Assembly: GCA_050250875.1 (NCBI GenBank)
Contig: JBFWNV010000002.1
Coordinates: forward strand, 334-64,333
Reading direction: 5' to 3'
DNA: 64,000 nt
DNA from: Vicinamibacterales bacterium
GTDB lineage: Bacteria > Acidobacteriota > Vicinamibacteria > Vicinamibacterales > UBA2999
Made by a program: the position numbers and the translations under genes. The notes under the pieces were generated by a model. It saw only the letters and a list, made by a program, of their open reading frames with translations. It was not told the DNA's origin and did no database searches. Shown piece by piece: positions 8,232 to 59,248 of the stretch; the stretch's first letter is position 1; every line of letters begins with the position of its first letter.

Positions 8232-10157
8232 TCAGCGCGCCTGCGTTACGGCGGCCGGACGCTGCTGACCGAAGCCGACCGGCCACTGCTCCGACAGCGC
8301 CACCGGCAGCCGCCCTCGAACCGGGATCTCTCCGGCCAGCGCCCGTACCGCCGCCGCTTCGGCGTGATCGCCGAAGTCGTAGGTGAGCAGCACTGTCGGC
8401 AGCGTCGGCGCGGCCACGGCGGCGTAGGGGCTGCCGAAGAAGGCGGCGGCGAGAGGCTGATTGCGGCGCGCGGCGCCGGTGGCCAGATCGCCGAGCAGCC
8501 GGGTGATGCCGGGCGACAGGTCCAGGCGTCCGCTGCCCGAAGCCGCCCGGACGAACACGCCGACGACGACGGCGTCGTGGCCGGCCGCCATCGCACGGAC
8601 CAGTTCGAGCTCCTCGGCGGAGGACCGATCCGACAGCTCCACGGCGGTGACCGACGGCCACCGCGCCCGCAACTCCGGAATGACGGTGCGGCTCGGCGCG
8701 GCGATGCGCCAGTTCGACGGGTAGTCGAGCACCGACAGATACAGCAGCCGCCCGGTGCGCGGCGTGGGCAGTGGCACGCTGCCGCGATCGTCGCGCACCA
8801 GGGTCACGGCGGCGTCGGCCACGGCGCGCGCGGCCTCGGCGCCGGCCTTCGTGCCGACCGCAGTCATCACCTGCTCCAGGTTCACGGTGCGCGCCAGGTG
8901 CAGGCCGAGGCGGGCCTTGTGCGCCAGCACGCGACGCGCCGACGCCTCGAGGCGGGCGCGGGTGAGGCGTCCACTCGCCACCGCGGCGTTGAGCGCCGAG
9001 AACGCCGCCCGCGGGTCGGCGGAGTCGAGCACCACGTCGGCGCCGGCCTCGATCGCCCGCACCGCCGCTTCGCCCGGCTCGACCATCGCGTTCACGGCGT
9101 CCATCCGCATCGAGTCGGTGTAGATCACGCCGTCGAAACCGAGTTCCCGGCGCAGCAGGCCGGAGACGATCGGCGCGCTGAAGGTGGCCGGTCCCGGCGT
9201 GGGGTCGAGGGCCGGCATCTCGACGTGCGCGACCATGGCCGCGCCGGCGCCGGCGGCGATGCCGTCGCGAAACGGCGCCAGTTCCACGCGGTCGAGGCGC
9301 GCGCGATCGTGCGGCACGGTGGCCAGGCCGAGGTGCGTGTCCACGGCCGTGTCGCCGTGTCCCGGAAAATGCTTGAGCGTGGCGACGACGCCGCCCTCCT
9401 GCAACCCGGCCACCGCCTCGCGCACCAGCTGGCCGACGCGAGCGGGATCCTCGCCGAACGAGCGGATGTTGATCACCGGGTTGCGCGGGTTGTTGTTCAC
9501 GTCGGCGACCGGCGCGAAATTGACGTGCACGCCGATGGCCCGCGCCTCGACGCCGGCAAGGCGTGACGCCTCGTGCACCAGCGCTGGATCACCGACGGCG
9601 CCGAACGCCATCGATCGCGGGAACCGCGTGGCGCCGCTGATGCGCATGCCGACGCCGTGTTCGAAGTCGGCGCCGACCAGCAAGGGCACCTTCGCCAGCC
9701 CCTGGAGCCGGTTGAGGATCGCAGCCAGCTCGAGCGGCTGGCCGAGAATCGTCGGGCCATAGGTGGGATTCAGCATCACCTGCGGCACCAGCTCGACGCC
9801 GCCGAAGGCGCAGAACCCGCCCATGTGCACGTCGCGCACCAGTGCGGCGAGCGCCTCGAACTCGGCCGAGTCGGCGCTGAGGTAGGTCGAGTTGAGGCGG
9901 CCCATCAGCAGCTGGCCGACCAGTTCCGGGGTGGACAGCGACTTGAGCGTGGCGTCGACCCAGCGCGCATCCGCGGGAAGCAGCGTGGGCGACAGCCCGC
10001 CGGGTGGCCGCGGCGGAGGCGGCATCGCACGCGCGGGCTGTCGAGCGCGCGGCCGCGGTGCCTGCGCGACGAGCACCCCCGGTGGCAGGTGCGCCACGCC
10101 AAGGACGCCGAGGGCGAACACCACGAGCGCGCGACGCACGCCAGCATGATATGGCAC
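8232..10157 (-). CDS. Glycoside hydrolase family 3 protein (beta-N-acetylhexosaminidase/NagZ-like, secreted)
   Basis: GH3 catalytic region with motifs KHFPGHGDTAVDTH and FAPVADVNNNPRNPVINIRSFGEDP. The N-terminus looks like a signal peptide. The start is uncertain (alternative GTG at 10139). Confidence 0.85.
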   Translation of the reverse strand: MPYHAGVRRALVVFALGVLGVAHLPPGVLVAQAPRPRARQPARAMPPPPRPPGGLSPTLLPADARWVDATLKSLSTPELVGQLLMGRLNSTYLSADSAEFEALAALVRDVHMGGFCAFGGVELVPQVMLNPTYGPTILGQPLELAAILNRLQGLAKVPLLVGADFEHGVGMRISGATRFPRSMAFGAVGDPALVHEASRLAGVEARAIGVHVNFAPVADVNNNPRNPVINIRSFGEDPARVGQLVREAVAGLQEGGVVATLKHFPGHGDTAVDTHLGLATVPHDRARLDRVELAPFRDGIAAGAGAAMVAHVEMPALDPTPGPATFSAPIVSGLLRRELGFDGVIYTDSMRMDAVNAMVEPGEAAVRAIEAGADVVLDSADPRAAFSALNAAVASGRLTRARLEASARRVLAHKARLGLHLARTVNLEQVMTAVGTKAGAEAARAVADAAVTLVRDDRGSVPLPTPRTGRLLYLSVLDYPSNWRIAAPSRTVIPELRARWPSVTAVELSDRSSAEELELVRAMAAGHDAVVVGVFVRAASGSGRLDLSPGITRLLGDLATGAARRNQPLAAAFFGSPYAAVAAPTLPTVLLTYDFGDHAEAAAVRALAGEIPVRGRLPVALSEQWPVGFGQQRPAAVTQAR

Positions 10158-10720
10158 CGGGCGACTTCCTGTTCCCTGTTGCCGAGCCCGGCCCCGAATC
10201 CCTGTTCTATGATGCCCTCGTGACGCAGGACGCCCACAAGAGCGAAGGCCCGCGCGCCGTCCGCGTGGCCGTGCTGACCATCAGCGACACCCGCACCGAG
10301 GCCACCGACACCAGCGGACGCGCCATCGTCGAGCTGCTGCAGGACCAGAGCCACGCGGTGGTCGCCCGCGCCCTCGTGCGCGACGACCCCGACGCCGTGA
10401 TCGAGTTCGTGCGCGGCCACCTGACCGGCGAGGTGCAGGTGGTCATCACGACCGGCGGCACCGGCATCACGTCGCGGGACTCGACGTTCGAGGCCATCGA
10501 CGCGCTGCTCGAGAAGCGGCTCGACGGGTTCGGCGAGCTGTTCCGGATGCTCAGCTACGACGACATCGGCCCGGCCGCGATGATGAGCCGTGCCTGCGCC
10601 GGCCTCGTGCACCGCCGCGTCGTGATCGCGCTGCCGGGGTCCGAGGGCGCTGTGCGGCTGGCGATGACCAAGCTGGTGCTGCCCGAGCTGACGCATCTCG
10701 TGCAGCAGGCGTCGAAGTAG
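10151..10720 (+). CDS. moaB: Molybdenum cofactor biosynthesis protein B (MoaB/MogA family)
   Basis: Motifs VAVLTISDTR..DTSG and ITTGGTGITSRD. The start is ambiguous: ATG 10151 overlaps the divergent GH3 start, and GTG 10220 is the alternative. Confidence 0.8.
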   Translation: MAPGDFLFPVAEPGPESLFYDALVTQDAHKSEGPRAVRVAVLTISDTRTEATDTSGRAIVELLQDQSHAVVARALVRDDPDAVIEFVRGHLTGEVQVVITTGGTGITSRDSTFEAIDALLEKRLDGFGELFRMLSYDDIGPAAMMSRACAGLVHRRVVIALPGSEGAVRLAMTKLVLPELTHLVQQASK

Positions 10721-10722
10721 CG

Positions 10723-11931
10723 ATGCGCCCCTTCGCCGCCACCATCCCGCTCGGCGAGGCCCGGTCGATCCTCGACGGCGCGGTCCGATCGATCGTCCGC
10801 GCCGAGTCCGTCGGCCTGTCGGCCCTCACCGGCCGGGTGCTCGCCGAGCACGTCACTGCCGACGCCGATGTGCCGCCGTTCGCCCGCGCCATGATGGATG
10901 GCTACGCGCTGCGCGCCGCCGACACGACCGGCGCCTCGCGTGAGACACCGCGCGACCTGAGGGTGGTCGGCCGGGTGTTCACCGGCGAAGTCTTTGCCGG
11001 CGCAGTGGCGGCCGGGCAGGCGGTCGAGATCGCCACCGGCGCGCCGCTGCCGGCGGGCGCCGATGCGGTGGTGATGGTCGAAGAGACCCGGCCCGCCGGT
11101 GCCGATCGCGTCGCGATCACCGCCGCCGCGACGGCCGGCCATCACGTGGGCCGGGCCGGTGCCGACATCGCCCGCGGAGCCACCGTGCTGCACGCCGGCG
11201 ACGTGCTGGCCCCGAGCCGCGTCGGCGTGCTGGCGGCGCTGGGGCGCACGGAAGCGCGGGTCCTGGCCCGTCCGCGCGTGGCCATCGTGTCCACCGGCAA
11301 CGAGATCGTCGCGCCGGGACGCCCGCTCGGTCCCGGGCAGATCTACGACATCAACCGCCACACGTTGAGCGCCGTCATCGCCGGCCACGGCGGCGTGGCC
11401 GAGCCGCTCGAGGTGGCTGGCGACACGATGGACGCGCTGGATCGGGCCCTGGACGCCGCGGTGGCCTGCGACCTCGTCGTCTTCTCCGGCGGCAGTTCCG
11501 TGGGCGATCGCGACCTGGTGCTCGACGTCCTGCGCCGCCGCGGCGAGGTGCTGTTCCACGGCATCGCCACCCGGCCGGGCAAGCCGACGGCGTTCGGCCG
11601 GCTGGGCGACGTGCCGGTGTTCGGGATGCCGGGCAACCCGACGTCGTGCCTCACCAACGCCTACGTGCTGCTGGTGCCGTTCCTGCGCCGCCTCGCCGGC
11701 CTGCCGCCGCACCGCCCGCACGTGGTGCCGGCGCCACTGGCCCGACGGGTGACGTCCGGGGCCGGCCGCCATCAGTTCTACACGGTGCGATTGGTGGACG
11801 GCCGTGCCGAGCCGGCGTTCAAGGCCTCCAGCGACATCACCAGCATGGCCCAGGCCGACGGCTACATCGAGATCGCCGCCGAAGTGACGGCGATCGAGGC
11901 AGGCACGACGGTGGCCGTGGTCTTGTTCTGA
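10723..11931 (+). CDS. moeA: Molybdopterin molybdotransferase
   Basis: 402-aa ORF with MoeA layout (FARAMMDGYA, VSTGNEI, SGGSSVGDRD, GMPGNPTS). Confidence 0.9.
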   Translation: MRPFAATIPLGEARSILDGAVRSIVRAESVGLSALTGRVLAEHVTADADVPPFARAMMDGYALRAADTTGASRETPRDLRVVGRVFTGEVFAGAVAAGQAVEIATGAPLPAGADAVVMVEETRPAGADRVAITAAATAGHHVGRAGADIARGATVLHAGDVLAPSRVGVLAALGRTEARVLARPRVAIVSTGNEIVAPGRPLGPGQIYDINRHTLSAVIAGHGGVAEPLEVAGDTMDALDRALDAAVACDLVVFSGGSSVGDRDLVLDVLRRRGEVLFHGIATRPGKPTAFGRLGDVPVFGMPGNPTSCLTNAYVLLVPFLRRLAGLPPHRPHVVPAPLARRVTSGAGRHQFYTVRLVDGRAEPAFKASSDITSMAQADGYIEIAAEVTAIEAGTTVAVVLF

Positions 11932-18149: not shown

Positions 18150-18372
18150 CGGCGGCCGGGTGCTACACTGCGCAGACAATCGACGCGTTCCCGTGGCTGG
18201 CCAGGGAAGTGGGTGCGAGTCCCACACGGTCCCGCCACTGTAAGCGGGGAGCGCCCGTCCACCGGCTGGACTGCGATCCAGCCCGTCACTGCCGATCGGC
18301 GCCGTGCGGCGCCGGCGGGGGGAAGACGAGGACGCGGCGTGACGATCCGCGAGTCAGGAGACCTCCTCCACG
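18150..18372 (+). promoter_or_regulatory. Cobalamin (B12) riboswitch
   Basis: The core reads CCAGGGAAGUGGGUGCGAGUCCCACACGGUCCCGCCACUGUAAGCGGGGA and includes the B12 box. The 3' element is GAGUCAGGAGACCUCCUCC. CCUCCUC (18362-18368) is complementary to the SD sequence GAGGAGG (18423-18429) of the downstream receptor gene. Confidence 0.85.
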
Positions 18373-43233: not shown

Positions 43234-44376
43234 ATGCGGGTCGAGCCCTTCGCGATGGAGCGCTTTCAGTCGGTCTGGGAGCACCGGGTACGCATCAACC
43301 TGTCGGAGAGCGGCGTCCATCCCCTCAGCGTGCGCGAGCTGGTCGGCGACGGCGCGGCCCTCGACGCGCTGCTCGATCAGCCGCTCGTCTACACCCAGAC
43401 CAACGGCACCGAGGCGCTCCGCTCGGCCATCGCCGCGCTCTATCCCGGCGCTGGCGTGGACCACGTCGAGGTGACCAACGGCGGAGCCGAGGCCAACTTC
43501 CTCGTCACCTGGTACCTCGTGCAGCCGGGCGACGAGGTGGTGATGCTCGTGCCCACCTACATGCAGACGCACGGGCTGGTCCGCGCCTTCGGCGGCGTCG
43601 TCCGCGAGTGGCCGCTGGTCGAGGACCGCGACGAGCGGCGGTGGCGGCTCGATCTGGACCATCTGGCCGCCCTGGTCGGCCCGCGCACGCGGGCGATCGT
43701 GCTGTGCACGCCCAACAACCCGACCGGCCGGCGGCTCACCGGCGACGAACTCGATGCCATCGCCGCGATCGCCGATCGCCACGGCTGCTGGATCGTGAGC
43801 GACGAGATCTACCGCGGCGCCGAACGCGACGGCGTCGAGTCGCCGTCGATGTGGGGGCGCGGTGAACGCGTCGTCGTCACGAGCGGTCTGTCCAAGGCCT
43901 ACGGCCTGCCCGGCCTGCGCATCGGCTGGGTGGCAACCGCGCCGGACGTGGCCGAGACCCTGTGGAGCTATCACGACTACACCACGATCGCGCCGGGCGC
44001 CCTGAGCGATCGCCTGGCGCGGACGGCGCTGGCGCCACCGACCCGGGCCCGACTGCTGGCGCGCACGCGCCAGGTGATCACCGACAACCTGCCGCGGGTC
44101 GAAGCCTGGCTCGATGCGCACGGCGATCGCTTCGCCTGGATCCCGCCCGAGGCCGGCGCCTTCGTCTACGCCCGCTACGCCGGCGCCATCAACTCGACCG
44201 CGCTGGTCACGCGCCTGCGCGACGAGGAGAGCGTCCTGGTCGTCCCCGGCGATCAGTTCGGCATGGACGGCTACCTGCGGATCGGCGTCGGTGAACACGT
44301 CGCATCGGTGATGGCCGGTCTGGAGCGGCTGCGCGCGGTGCTCGACTGCTGGCCACAGCCCGCGGCTGCACGCTGA
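43234..44376 (+). CDS. PLP-dependent aminotransferase, class I/II
   Basis: Motifs NPTGRRL, SDEIY and SGLSKAYGLPGLRIGW (PLP lysine). Confidence 0.85.
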   Translation: MRVEPFAMERFQSVWEHRVRINLSESGVHPLSVRELVGDGAALDALLDQPLVYTQTNGTEALRSAIAALYPGAGVDHVEVTNGGAEANFLVTWYLVQPGDEVVMLVPTYMQTHGLVRAFGGVVREWPLVEDRDERRWRLDLDHLAALVGPRTRAIVLCTPNNPTGRRLTGDELDAIAAIADRHGCWIVSDEIYRGAERDGVESPSMWGRGERVVVTSGLSKAYGLPGLRIGWVATAPDVAETLWSYHDYTTIAPGALSDRLARTALAPPTRARLLARTRQVITDNLPRVEAWLDAHGDRFAWIPPEAGAFVYARYAGAINSTALVTRLRDEESVLVVPGDQFGMDGYLRIGVGEHVASVMAGLERLRAVLDCWPQPAAAR

Positions 44377-45419
44377 TGCCGGCGCGGCCGTCGCTGCGGC
44401 TCGTGCTCGTCGGCACCGGCCATGTCGGGCGCCGGCTGCTGACGCTGCTCGCCCAGATCGGCGACCGGCTGCCGTTCGACTGGTCGCTGGTCGGGGTGTG
44501 CTCCCGATCGCGCGGCGGCCGGTTCGACGCCGACGGGATCGATCCGGGCCAGCTCGATGGGCCGCTCGATCCGCCGGAGCGCTGGAACGGCGACGGCAGC
44601 GGCTTTCTCTCGGCCGCCCTGCCGCGGCTGGCCGCCGAGTGCCGCGCCGGCCGCGTGGTGGTCGTCGAAACCACCGTGCTGGACGCCGCCCGCGGGGAAC
44701 CGGCGACGAGCCACGTGCGAACGGCGCTGGGCGCCGGCGCCCACGTCGTCACCGCCAACAAGGGACCGGCGGCATTCGCGTATCACGACCTGGCGGCCCG
44801 CGCCGCCGCCGCCGATCGCGCGTTCCTCTTCGAGAGCGCGGTCATGGACGGCGTGCCGGTGTTCTCGCTGGTCGCCGACGCGATGCCGGCGATGCGTGTC
44901 ACGGCGTTCCGCGGCGTCGTCAACACGACCTGCGGCTACGTCCTGGCCGCGCTCGAGCGCGGCGAACGCTTCGCCGACGCGCTCGCCGAGATGCAGCGCC
45001 AGGGCATCGCCGAGGCCGATCCGTCACTGGACGTCGACGGCTGGGATGCCGCGGCGAAGGCGGCCGTGCTGGCCAATGCGCTGCTCGACGCCCGGATCAC
45101 GCCCCACGACGTCGTCCGTCAGGGCATCCGCGGCCTCGACGTCGAGGCCCTGGCCCGGCACAGGACCCAGGGGGTGCGGCTGCGCCTGGTGGCCGAGGGA
45201 CGGCGCACGGCGGACGCCGTGACGTGCCGCGTGGCGCCGGCGTGGCTCGAGGCGGCGGATCCCCTGGCCCAGGTGTCGGGGCTCGAGAACGCGCTCTATC
45301 TGTCCACCGACCTTCTCGGCGAGATCGGCATCGTGCAGCGCGACGGCGGCCTCACCCAGACGGCGTACGGCCTGGTCGCCGATCTGGCGCGGGTCAGCCG
45401 TCGGGTGACCGCCCGGTGA
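44376..45419 (+). CDS. Homoserine dehydrogenase family oxidoreductase
   Basis: The N-terminal Rossmann motif is VLVGTGHVGRRL. Also ANKGP, ESAVMDGVPV and AEADPSLDVDGWDAA. Confidence 0.7.
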   Translation: MPARPSLRLVLVGTGHVGRRLLTLLAQIGDRLPFDWSLVGVCSRSRGGRFDADGIDPGQLDGPLDPPERWNGDGSGFLSAALPRLAAECRAGRVVVVETTVLDAARGEPATSHVRTALGAGAHVVTANKGPAAFAYHDLAARAAAADRAFLFESAVMDGVPVFSLVADAMPAMRVTAFRGVVNTTCGYVLAALERGERFADALAEMQRQGIAEADPSLDVDGWDAAAKAAVLANALLDARITPHDVVRQGIRGLDVEALARHRTQGVRLRLVAEGRRTADAVTCRVAPAWLEAADPLAQVSGLENALYLSTDLLGEIGIVQRDGGLTQTAYGLVADLARVSRRVTAR

Positions 45420-45642
45420 GCGCGGCCAGCGCCGCCGCGTCGAAGCCGACGACGGCGCGGTCGCCCGCGACGGTCACCGGCACGGTGCGATGACCCCGCG
45501 CCACGAGCTCGTCGTAGGCGGCGAGGTCCTCGTCGACGTTGCGCAGCACGAACGCCACCCCGGCCCGTGAAAGCCACGCCTTCACCCGTTCGCAGGGCTG
45601 TCAGCCTTCGCCGGCGAAGACGATGACGGGCGCCTCGGTCAT
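45394..45642 (-). CDS. Glutaredoxin/NrdH-fold protein with in-frame TGA in the redox motif (candidate selenoprotein, U-Q-P-C), 82 codons
   Basis: ORF fragments 45601..45834 (C-terminal MTEAPVIVFAGEG) and 45394..45585 are in the same frame. The joined read is VIVFAGEG-TGA-QPCERVKAWL...RTVPVTV..VVGFD. A hairpin lies at 45567-45585, 15 nt after the TGA. Confidence 0.5.
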
Positions 45643-45703
45643 GCATCCGACATTACCAGAGCGCCGGCCGGCGCGACGCGGGGTACCATGTGCGGGACAC
45701 GAC

Positions 45704-46897
45704 ATGGGACCACTGACCGGCATCACCGTTCTCGACTTCACGCGCGTGCTCTCCGGGCCGTACTGCACGATGATCCTCGGCGACCTCGGCGCGCGCGTCA
45801 TCAAGCTCGAACATCCCGGCCGCGGTGACGACACCCGGCGCTGGGGCCCGCCGTTTCTCGGTGACGAGAGCGCCTACTTCCTGAGCGTCAACCGCAACAA
45901 GGAGAGCGTGGCGGTCGACTTCAAGACGCCGGGCGGCCGCGCCCTCGTGGATCGGTTGCTGGCCCAGGCCGACGTGCTGGTCGAGAACTTCCGTCCCGGC
46001 ACGCTCGACGGCGCCGGGTTCGATGCGGCCACTGTGCGGGCGGCGCATCCGCGGTTGATCTACTGCTCCATCTCCGGCTACGGCCAGACCGGGCCCCGCC
46101 GCGACGAACCCGGCTACGACGCGGTGATGCAGGCCGAGGGCGGGCTGATGAGCATCACCGGAGCGGCCGACGGGCCGCCGTATCGCCTCGGCGTCGCCAT
46201 CGTGGACATCGTCTCGGGCATGTTCGCCGCGCAGGGCGTGCTCGCGGCGCTCGTCGCCCGCGAGCGCACCGGGCAGGGCCAGGTGGTCGATCTCGGCATG
46301 CTCGACGCCACCACCGCGCTGCTCACCTATCAGGCCGGCAACTTCTTCGCGACCGGCGCGGCGCCGGGCCGGCTCGGCAACCGTCATCCGACCATCGCGC
46401 CCTACGAGACCTTCGCCACCGCCGACGGCGACCTGGCCCTGGCCGTCGGCAACGACGCGCTGTGGCAGAAGTTCTGCGCGGCCGCGGAGCTGCCCGACCT
46501 GGCCGCCGATCCGCGATTCGCGTCGAACGCCGGACGGCTCGAGCACTACCCGGCGCTCAAGCCGCGGCTCGACGCGGCGTTCGCCTCACGGACGCGCGCC
46601 GACTGGACGGCGCGGCTGCTGGCCGCGGGCGTGCCGTGCGGGGCGGTGCGGACGGTGGAGGAGGTCTTCGCCGATCCGCAGACGGCGGCGCGCGAGATGG
46701 TGCGGAAGGTGCCGCACGCGACGCTGGGCGAGGTCTCGGTCACCGGCGTGCCGGTCAAGCTGTCGGACACCCCCGGCAGCGTGCGCCTCGGTCCGCCGGT
46801 GCTGGGGCAACATACCGCGGCGGTGCTGCGCGAGCTCGGCTACGATCAGGCGGCCATCGCATCACTGGCGTCGTCGGGCGCCGTCCGGGTGGCGTGA
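45704..46897 (+). CDS. CoA transferase, family III (CaiB/BaiF)
   Basis: Motifs ITVLDFTRVLSGPYCTMILGDLGARVIKLE, ENFRPG and GYD..MQA.GG. Confidence 0.85.
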   Translation: MGPLTGITVLDFTRVLSGPYCTMILGDLGARVIKLEHPGRGDDTRRWGPPFLGDESAYFLSVNRNKESVAVDFKTPGGRALVDRLLAQADVLVENFRPGTLDGAGFDAATVRAAHPRLIYCSISGYGQTGPRRDEPGYDAVMQAEGGLMSITGAADGPPYRLGVAIVDIVSGMFAAQGVLAALVARERTGQGQVVDLGMLDATTALLTYQAGNFFATGAAPGRLGNRHPTIAPYETFATADGDLALAVGNDALWQKFCAAAELPDLAADPRFASNAGRLEHYPALKPRLDAAFASRTRADWTARLLAAGVPCGAVRTVEEVFADPQTAAREMVRKVPHATLGEVSVTGVPVKLSDTPGSVRLGPPVLGQHTAAVLRELGYDQAAIASLASSGAVRVA

Positions 46898-46898
46898 G

Positions 46899-47327
46899 AT
46901 GGACATCGCCCTGCTCCGCAAGTCGCTGGTCAAGGCCATCGAGAGCGCCCGGCGCGACGCCGCCGAGCGGCGCACGCGCGCCGACGAGGCCGGCCGCCAC
47001 TACACGCAGTTCCTCGAGCAGACGGCGACGCCGGTGTTCCGGGCGATGGCCAACGCCCTGCGCGGCGAGGGTCTGCTCTTCGACGTGATGACGCCGTCGG
47101 GCGGCGTCCGCCTGGTGCCCGAGCGGTCGCGGGAGGACGGCATCGAGCTGGTGCTCGACACCAGCGTGGATCCGCCGCAGCCGCTGGTGCGCGTGGTGCG
47201 CTCGCGCGGCAGCCGGGTGACGCAGCACGAGCGGCCGGTGGCCGGCCCGGTCCGCACCGACGCGCTCACCGAGGATCACGTGGCGGCGATGCTGCTCGAA
47301 GAGCTGCGGCCGTGGTTGGAGAGATAG
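46899..47327 (+). CDS. Hypothetical protein
   Basis: 142-aa ORF starting 1 nt after the upstream stop codon. No family was recognised. Confidence 0.5.
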   Translation: MDIALLRKSLVKAIESARRDAAERRTRADEAGRHYTQFLEQTATPVFRAMANALRGEGLLFDVMTPSGGVRLVPERSREDGIELVLDTSVDPPQPLVRVVRSRGSRVTQHERPVAGPVRTDALTEDHVAAMLLEELRPWLER

Positions 47328-47390
47328 GCTCGGGGCTCGGGGCTCGGGGCTCGGGGCTCGGGGCTCGGGGCTCGGGGCTCGGGGCTCGGG
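47327..47390 (+). repeat. Heptad array R10 (about 9 x GGGGCTC, G-rich on plus strand)
   Basis: A perfect tandem array beginning at the last base of the stop codon 47325-47327. Confidence 0.95.
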
Positions 47391-47457
47391 AAGAACCTAA
47401 ACGGAACCATCACCCATTCTTCCGGCAGCGTGACGTCTCGACAACTTGAGTGTTCGA

Positions 47458-47484
47458 ACCCGAGCCCCGAAACCCGAGCCCCGG
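47458..47484 (-). repeat. Heptad array R11 (ACCCGAG CCCCGAA ACCCGAG CCCCGG on plus strand; G-rich on minus strand)
   Basis: On the minus strand the array begins 19 nt after the PilT-like stop codon (47504-47506). It is complementary to R10. Confidence 0.85.
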
Positions 47485-58564: not shown

Positions 58565-59248
58565 TCAGGTCGTCGGCAGGTCCGCCGTCCGGAGCGCCGC
58601 GTCGATCGCGTCCGGCAGGTCGCCCACCGTGTCGGCGACGAAGGCCGTCGGCGGTGATGCGAAGGCCGCCGCGCCGAACCCGTAGGCGGCCAGCACGAAC
58701 GGCACGCCGCCGCGCCGCGCGGTCTCGGCGTCCACCGGCGAGTCGCCGACCAGCACCATGGGTCCCCCACCGGCGTGGAGGCGCAGCGACGTCAGCCCGG
58801 CGGGATCGGGTTTGCGCGGCAGCGGCCCGTCACCGCCGACCACCTCGAGGAAACGCCCGCGCACCCCGAGCCCCTCGAGGACGCGCTCGGCCGGCCACCG
58901 GGGCTTGTTGGTGAGCACCGTCAGCGCCAGCAACGGATCGAGGCCGTCGAGCATCTGCGTGATGCCCGGGTAGAGCCGGGTGGTGTCGAGGAGCCGGGCA
59001 TCGTAGAGCGCCAGGAACCGCTCGAGGGCCCCCGGCATCGCCGGGTCGAGGCCGGCCGCGGTCAGCACCCGCTGCACGAGCACGGCGGCACCCTCGCCGA
59101 TCATCGCCACCACTTCGGCGCGGGTCAGCGCCCGGCCACCGAGCTCTTCGGCCAGCGCGCTGGCCGCCGACGCCAGGTCGGTGGCCGAATCCACCAGGGT
59201 GCCGTCGAGGTCGAAGACCACGGCCCCGGCCTGCCAGGGCCGTCTCAC
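58565..59248 (-). CDS. HAD-superfamily phosphatase (phosphoglycolate phosphatase-like)
   Basis: GTG 59248 start. HAD motif I is FDLDGTLVDS. Also LTNKP and VGDSPVD. Confidence 0.75.
   Translation of the reverse strand: MRRPWQAGAVVFDLDGTLVDSATDLASAASALAEELGGRALTRAEVVAMIGEGAAVLVQRVLTAAGLDPAMPGALERFLALYDARLLDTTRLYPGITQMLDGLDPLLALTVLTNKPRWPAERVLEGLGVRGRFLEVVGGDGPLPRKPDPAGLTSLRLHAGGGPMVLVGDSPVDAETARRGGVPFVLAAYGFGAAAFASPPTAFVADTVGDLPDAIDAALRTADLPTT

Follow-up and report, generated by a model that had tools for sequence, protein, structure and literature searches.

A probable selenocysteine-encoding UGA, followed by a SECIS-type hairpin, in a conserved glutaredoxin-like gene of Vicinamibacterales

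The DNA studied here is a 64,000-nucleotide stretch (the window) of contig JBFWNV010000002.1, assembled from a Vicinamibacterales bacterium of the phylum Acidobacteriota, and its subject is a small minus-strand gene with an in-frame TGA codon, followed by a hairpin of the selenocysteine insertion sequence (SECIS) type. A preliminary description of the window, made from its letters and its open reading frames (ORFs), proposed that two ORF fragments split by this TGA and five further codons form a single glutaredoxin-fold gene, in which the TGA would encode selenocysteine (Sec). The relation between the fragments is as described: the minus-strand ORF ending at TGA 45603-45601 and the ORF from GTG 45585 share one frame, with 15 nt (five codons, QPCER) between them. 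Translation through the in-frame TGA, beginning with ATG 45642-45640 and closing at the stop TGA 45396-45394, yields MTEAPVIVFAGEG-[TGA]-QPCERVKAWLSRAGVAFVLRNVDEDLAAYDELVARGHRTVPVTVAGDRAVVGFDAAALAALTGRSPDG, 82 residues in length. The features of the gene are as follows.

45394..45642, minus strand: putative selenoprotein gene, glutaredoxin-like and complete (82 codons plus stop), recognised from its frame, PF00462, the PDB alignment and 88 loci; protein layout MTEAPVIVFAGEG-U-QPCERVKAWLS...TVPVTV...VVGFD...GRSPDG
45640..45642, minus strand: predicted start codon ATG
45601..45603, minus strand: in-frame UGA, residue 14, first position of U-Q-P-C; TGA in 88 of 88 loci, predicted to encode Sec
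45592..45594, minus strand: resolving Cys codon TGC of the UxxC motif; Cys invariant in 74 distinct sequences
45567..45585, minus strand: SECIS-type hairpin, stem 45585-45579 / 45573-45567, 7 bp (an eighth, C-G pair possible), loop CGUGG
45478..45486, minus strand: T-V-P motif, residues 53-55, thioredoxin-fold cis-Pro loop; 73 of 74 sequences have the Pro
45394..45396, minus strand: true stop TGA of the gene, inside the 26 nt by which its 3' end overlaps the convergent homoserine-dehydrogenase-like gene

Read with C in place of U, residues 6-62 of the product match the Pfam Glutaredoxin family (PF00462) at E=1.1e-12, with 48.4 bits against a cut-off of 22.9. Solved glutaredoxins and NrdH proteins in the PDB align with the window protein over its full length; U-Q-P-C is matched with CPHC of PDB 7c10 and CPYC of 1fov, at the start of helix 1, and TVP with the VP of PDB glutaredoxins. 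The cis conformation of the TVP proline would follow from the fold family. The Pfam match and the PDB alignments bear out the 82-residue read-through product with a glutaredoxin/NrdH fold that had been envisaged, and the minus-strand interval 45642-45394 very probably encodes a thiol-disulfide oxidoreductase of this fold. Alignment to CxxC homologues and to 7c10 likewise confirms that the TGA sits where the N-terminal redox Cys belongs. As for the start, homologues carry an in-frame ATG or GTG 9-13 codons 5' of the TGA, in some cases with a stop codon directly before it.

Searching proteins with the Cys-substituted product gave 16 homologues, each 54-69 aa long and beginning after the TGA position, gene callers having chosen the equivalent of GTG 45585 or a nearby start. 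Being called as such fragments is the behaviour expected of unrecognised selenoproteins. One of the homologues is named 'glutaredoxin family protein [Vicinamibacterales bacterium]' and the others 'glutaredoxin' or 'hypothetical protein'. The truncated homologue P0007 is labelled 'adenosylhomocysteine nucleosidase' by its source, an evident mis-annotation. An exhaustive search of representatives gave 154 proteins at E <= 0.001, consisting of truncated Sec-forms and full-length CxxC proteins. None of the public annotations found for the family recognises a Sec gene, and the entries lack the active site.

At the nucleotide level, the codon in the Sec column is TGA in all 88 loci (70 distinct TGA+60 sequences) and TGC or TGT in none. 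These loci are the window itself, 10 loci from metagenome-assembled genomes (MAGs) or assemblies, 76 metagenome loci covering the column, and a further locus, L010. They derive from Vicinamibacterales/Acidobacteriota MAGs and metagenome contigs, through different assemblies and technologies, and the occurrence of the same TGA in independent assemblies makes a sequencing error for TGC/TGT untenable. The metagenome scan relied on a pattern from the C-terminal half only (AY[DH][EA]L...), blind to the TGA and to the hairpin, and the best 80 of 146 relatives were used; among those 80, all 76 that cover the column show TGA followed by x-x-Cys. Genome contigs of GTDB species representatives were scanned with two patterns, one with Cys fixed in the Sec column. 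No Cys form came from that pattern, and all four confirmed loci, from Vicinamibacterales and Acidobacteriota MAGs, carry TGA at the column.

The frame runs on 5' through the TGA in every locus from the protein search, as in MSEPPFVVYAGEG*QPCERVKAWLS, MAERRVVVYAGEG*LPCERVKAWLS and VIILYSGSG*MPCERVKEFLS (asterisk, TGA). Most relatives read U-R-S-C where the window reads U-Q-P-C. Among 74 distinct sequences, entropy over the eight codons 5' of the TGA averages 0.46, 0.31 and 0.79 bits for the first, second and third codon positions; on the 3' side, Cys+3 is invariant (TGC in 68, TGT in 6) and Glu+4 is written GAA in 34 and GAG in 33. Flanking codons vary chiefly at third positions, and purifying selection is visible on either side of the TGA. 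This coding pattern, in one frame on both sides, all but excludes the annotated 63-aa product starting after the TGA, and likewise a pseudogene and a sequencing error. Since the flanking genes in the relatives' loci are only ~50-70% identical to those of the window, the TGA codon has been kept over deep divergence. Decay across the motif, which the preliminary description had named as the mark of a pseudogene, is not what the orthologues show: the motif is strictly conserved, TGA stands in 88 of 88 loci, and substitutions on both sides are of the coding type.

The hairpin had been described as 8 bp long, beginning 15 nt after the TGA, with G/U in its apical loop. In the window this holds: GUGAAGGC-GUG-GCUUUCAC, at 45585-45567, starts 15 nt 3' of the TGA, carries G-U at positions 2-3 of the loop CGUGG and has a folding energy of -8.3 kcal/mol. 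It is present in both the minimum free energy (MFE) and the centroid folds, and its sequence occurs once in the window. Across 70 sequences the conserved part is shorter by one pair. In the RNAalifold consensus, which spans nt 19-37 with the U of UGA as nt 1, GUGAARG and CUUUCAC pair over 7 bp around the 5-nt loop NGUKN; 43 of the 70, the window among them, add the eighth pair as C-G or A-U. The spacing from UGA to loop is 22-23 nt (consensus 22). According to a 2026 review (PMC13188914), the bacterial SECIS (bSECIS) consensus comprises an apical loop of 3-9 nt on a stem of 4-16 bp, a G as first or second loop nucleotide (usually N-G-[G/U]-N-N, whose outer N's pair), a UGA-loop distance of 16-37 nt and an MFE <= -7.5 kcal/mol. 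The window hairpin lies within all of these constraints, in stem, loop, spacing and MFE alike.

Because the stem never varies, covariation statistics are unusable here, and arguments from synonymous sites and from Cys orthologues were used instead. Among the 74 distinct sequences, sense codons with zero third-position variation are found only in the hairpin: GTG (Val), GNG (Glu/Ala), CTT (Leu) and TCA (Ser). CTT makes up 1.0% of Leu codons and TCA 2.9% of Ser codons in the window genes, and together they form the 3' arm of the hairpin; Leu outside the hairpin in the same gene is written CTC or CTG. The Lys codon is AAA in 62 of 74 relatives, and AAA accounts for 4.3% of Lys codons in the window.

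Homologues with Cys serve as a natural control. The first Cys of full-length CxxC homologues aligns with the TGA column, and Cys occupies that column in P0019 (CRAC), P0036 (CATC), P0040 (CADC), P0031 (CSHC) and many more distant proteins. Two of these, P0019 and P0036, are positional orthologues in the same gene neighbourhood; both use TGC and both lack the hairpin. P0019 (locus L092) sits between the 142-aa gene of that neighbourhood and a SIMPL gene, and its Leu-Ser codons are TTG TCG. P0036 (locus L093) has CTC GAG (Leu-Glu) at the Leu-Ser codons of the hairpin, and adjoins a CoA-transferase 88% identical to that of the window. The hairpin is thus present with TGA and absent with TGC; it travels with the TGA, as a SECIS should. 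Whether homologues hold Cys in the TGA column had been put forward as a check, and Cys is indeed found there in the two positional orthologues, in distant homologues and in the crystallised Grx1 of Clostridium oremlandii. As read from these alignments, the alternation of Sec and Cys in one column is the classical Sec/Cys signature. Judged by sequence comparison, the synonymous-site constraint, the rare fixed codons and the loss in Cys orthologues show the hairpin to be under RNA-level selection.

We conclude that, very likely, the UGA encodes Sec and the glutaredoxin gene carries a functional SECIS. The candidate UxxC glutaredoxin-fold selenoprotein with a bacterial SECIS is supported by TGA in 88 of 88 loci, by the fit to the bSECIS consensus and by the Cys orthologues.

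TGA is the commonest stop in the window, where it ends 23 of 38 high-confidence ORFs, so that its earlier characterisation as an ordinary stop elsewhere in the window stands. This count rules out a variant genetic code with TGA as a sense codon, and because TGA is the usual stop, recoding would be local. Three other TGA junctions have same-frame coding with high third-position G+C content on both sides, at 58567 (-), 46864 (-) and 37115 (+). No redox motif was seen in the flanking translations of these three, and none resembles a selenoprotein; the TGA at 58567 closes a HAD-hydrolase ORF, with a PIN-domain gene ~400 nt downstream. Sec machinery is assumed to exist in the host. We infer its presence from the retention of the frame, the active-site Cys, the fold and a hairpin that defies codon bias in 70 distinct sequences. 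Acidobacteria/Acidobacteriota are recorded as Sec users in earlier surveys and in later work.

Several observations weigh against Sec insertion at this codon. No selA, selB, selD or tRNA-Sec is present in the 64-kb window, an absence expected for a small sample, and tblastn of 507 kb (window and related loci) gave no match to E. coli SelA/SelD probes that had been validated against Pfam. ARAGORN found no tRNA-Sec in the window and 40 loci, the window tRNAs being only tRNA-Ser and tRNA-Arg. A database-wide search with the SelA probe gave only enterobacterial proteins among the matches listed. Pfam scans of 30 window ORFs detected no SelA, SelB or SelD; the same scans identified SufB, IscS/IscR-type genes, FeoA-domain proteins, superoxide dismutase, NadA and B12 uptake genes.

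Other such observations concern the hairpin and the gene itself. In many relatives the minimal hairpin has -5.9 to -7.1 kcal/mol, weaker than the -7.5 threshold. As a single sequence the hairpin is unremarkable, with a fold z-score of 0.58, and the two window strands (128 kb) together carry 396 hairpins with an 8-bp stem and a loop of 3-5 nt. The 70 sequences show no compensatory covariation, the stem being invariant with only A-U/G-U at pair 6, and the optional eighth pair is mismatched in 27 of them. No SECIS model of Rfam matched in the whole window or, on the strand of the gene, in a permissive scan of 45480-45660, the sole match in that interval being a SECIS_3 fragment (11.5 bits, E=8.5) on the opposite strand; these models are too narrow for diverse bacterial SECIS, and the lack of a match is uninformative. 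The comparison with a bacterial SECIS model that the preliminary description had suggested agreed with the published bSECIS constraints and found no counterpart in Rfam. Finally, frameshifting indels occur in two homologous loci. L010 (~10011-10030), on a ~1-Mb contig of a long-read Acidobacteriota MAG, has lost 1 nt in the stretch that separates the TGA from the Cys codon, and L056 (~1560-1630) has a ~19-nt deletion just 3' of the hairpin. These may be assembly errors, or pseudogenes reflecting local gene loss.

Were the TGA a true stop, the functional product would be a 63-aa protein from GTG 45585, the 5' part would be an untranslated leader, and the hairpin would regulate initiation. GTG 45585 is indeed invariant in all homologues, gene callers pick it or a nearby start, and the hairpin includes this codon and could in principle occlude it. 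Such a protein, however, would miss strand beta-1 and the entire redox motif, whereas the 13 codons before the TGA and the five after it are conserved as protein in one frame, with an invariant Cys. In addition, a start codon is conserved 9-13 codons upstream, and the Cys-form orthologues are uninterrupted and full-length, all of which renders the short product very improbable. It is scarcely credible that the gene is a pseudogene, or that TGC/TGT was turned into TGA by a mistake in sequencing or assembly. The frameshifting indels near the motif in L010 (the long-read MAG) and L056 would fit such an account, but an identical TGA is found in 88 independent loci (70 distinct sequences) with selection on both sides, and neither decay nor error would yield the identical codon and 19-nt hairpin each time.

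It also seems unlikely that the UGA is recoded to a residue other than Sec, either to Cys by a selC-like tRNA(Cys) with SelB and the SECIS, or by read-through with Trp, Gly or Ser. Both selC-like tRNA(Cys) and allo-tRNAs are known from published work, which reports allo-tRNAs from Acidobacteria as well as other groups, and neither tRNA-Sec nor SelA was found in the window and related loci examined. Against this, systems of recoding by selC-like tRNA(Cys) or suppressors are rare, and the residue occupies a nucleophilic redox position in which only Sec or Cys would be functional. The hairpin fits the SelB-type SECIS consensus, and for Cys a plain TGC without a hairpin would suffice, as in the two Cys orthologues. 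General suppression is unlikely with TGA as the main stop. We favour Sec as the residue presumably inserted, with SelB as its presumed reader.

With Sec insertion, expression of the gene could proceed as follows. Translation would begin at ATG 45642, and the ribosome would not terminate at UGA 45603-45601, the mRNA 15 nt downstream being folded into the 7-8 bp hairpin 45585-45567. By analogy with structurally studied SelB-SECIS complexes, this hairpin would act as a SECIS, tethering SelB-GTP-Sec-tRNA(Sec) via the G-U of its loop, and Sec would be delivered to the UGA. Translation would then run on to the true stop at 45396-45394. In the finished protein, the pair U14/C17 would cycle between selenol/thiol and selenenylsulfide, reducing disulfides or sulfenates in partner proteins. 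Substrate reduction is modelled on C. oremlandii Grx1 acting for MsrA.

The gene lies in a neighbourhood common to relatives, in which a 142-aa gene and a family III CoA-transferase gene (divergent) are followed by the glutaredoxin gene, a homoserine-dehydrogenase-like gene (convergent) and an aminotransferase gene. The neighbours in the window are as follows.

45704..46897, plus strand: CoA-transferase family III gene, divergent neighbour; in 79 of 92 sources
44376..45419, plus strand: homoserine-dehydrogenase-like gene, convergent neighbour; in 71 of 92 sources
43234-44376: class I/II aminotransferase gene, ahead of the homoserine-dehydrogenase-like gene

These three conserved neighbours give no clear hint to a physiological partner. 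The 3' overlap of 26 nt between the candidate selenoprotein gene and the homoserine-dehydrogenase-like gene (45394-45419) is called likewise in relatives (L001, 10001-10192 vs 10167-11228). A scan of 45300-45800 for sigma-70 promoters and terminators gave nothing, and there is no terminator-like hairpin between the convergent genes. In the upstream region (45643-45703), a -10-like box lies ~8-12 nt 5' of the start codon, as GGTAAT in the window and CATAAT in L010. In the equivalent region of many metagenome loci (L012-L091), an in-frame upstream translation ('RHNE/RHNV...M') is conserved. This suggests a conserved nucleotide element 5' of the start codon. No Shine-Dalgarno sequence is found at a usable distance 5' of the window start codon, and this, with the position of the -10-like box, suggests a leaderless or very short-leader mRNA.

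Elsewhere in the window, the heptanucleotide GGCTCGG is repeated 9.1 times in tandem, with 100% identity, from the stop codon of the 142-aa gene on (47327-47390), and ~70 nt beyond it are partial reverse-complement copies, CCCGAGC x 3.6 (47457-47483). Both runs occupy the space between two convergent genes, the 142-aa gene and that for a T2SSE-ATPase. In the identical contig L006 the repeat has 9 copies, and runs of at least 3 copies occur in no other locus. A cobalamin riboswitch (RF00174, 62.2 bits) is located at 18203-18364 (+), 5' of genes for a TonB-dependent receptor, a FecCD permease and a periplasmic binding protein; the riboswitch and the genes to ~23400 probably constitute a B12 uptake operon.

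Once the UGA is read as Sec, the redox enzyme is complete again across a whole Acidobacteriota clade, and Vicinamibacterales would by implication carry and depend on Sec machinery. The short list of Sec-glutaredoxins would gain a widely conserved member, and their range would grow from anaerobic Firmicutes and Deltaproteobacteria to Vicinamibacterales. The hairpin would be an unusually clean example of a SECIS, fixed against strong codon bias with TGA and gone with TGC, and the signature TGA-N6-TGY-N6-GTGAARGNGTNNCTTTCAC could be used in annotation. Knowledge of how selenoproteins work is unchanged, Sec glutaredoxins being already an established family. More tentatively, the window gene and its relatives may form a distinct selenoprotein clade outside the curated models, a fixed-locus core gene of Vicinamibacterales-type Acidobacteriota nearly always in the Sec form. 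The forms recovered at the locus are 88 Sec vs 2 Cys positional orthologues, and the 19-nt minimal SECIS is frozen in sequence though neighbouring proteins are down to ~50% identity. Such a clade would point to unusually sequence-specific SelB-SECIS recognition, and to a standing selenium requirement in an abundant environmental lineage that annotation pipelines have hidden.

Comparison with curated families places the protein near several of them. None of the curated NCBIfam models reaches its cut-off. The best matches are to the YruB family (TIGR02196), with 53.3 bits against a cut-off of 88.55, and to NrdH (TIGR02194), with 46.2 against 85.75, and membership in either was rejected. These families share the size and the CxxC...TVP...VGFD layout of the window protein, and the Cys homologues P0024 and P0135 resemble them, but they have Cys rather than Sec. 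Membership in the UXX-star families was also rejected (NF041212, 42.3 bits against 66; NF041114, NF041211 and NF047338 lower). A glutaredoxin-like fold, selenoprotein status and a weak profile similarity are held in common with UXX-star proteins. That family is named for a U-X-X-stop C-terminus, whereas the window protein ends ...GRSPDG and has a lone Sec in the N-terminal redox motif.

The hairpin resembles the bSECISearch model and the SECIS of E. coli fdhF in its place inside the coding sequence, shortly after the UGA, and in presenting G then U in a small apical loop on a 7-8 bp upper stem. Its G-U is ~4 nt more distant from the UGA than are G23/U24 of E. coli fdhF. Unlike the bacterial SECIS consensus, the window element is without a conserved lower stem, and the stem sequence is invariant throughout the clade, which is unusual for a SECIS.

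Sec glutaredoxins (PF00462, UxxC) are a known prokaryotic selenoprotein family, recorded in earlier surveys from Geobacter sulfurreducens, Alkaliphilus and Moorella. The window protein belongs to the same Pfam family, with the same UxxC Sec position and with Cys homologues; it differs in representing a clade in which the gene is conserved at the same locus of Vicinamibacterales-type Acidobacteriota. The closest solved structure, PDB 7c10 (E=1.9e-9, residues 5-77, 28 of 73 identical), is that of C. oremlandii Grx1 (cGrx1), a native selenoprotein with a catalytic Sec in U(C)PXC that was crystallised as its Cys variant (PMC7642778). cGrx1 has been proposed as the reductant of the selenoprotein MsrA, recycled by glutathione (PMC7642778). 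The two proteins (cGrx1 in PDB 7c10/7c12/7c13) share the PF00462 fold, a similar length (84 vs 82 aa), Sec at the column of the window TGA, the helix-1 segment (VKEFLS/VKAWLS) and the VVGFD motif. They differ in the redox motif, UPHC in cGrx1 and UQPC in the window (URSC in most relatives), and in their hosts, a Firmicutes anaerobe and a member of the Acidobacteriota. By this comparison, the gene very probably belongs to the known class of Sec-containing glutaredoxins, in a lineage and subfamily missed by current annotation.

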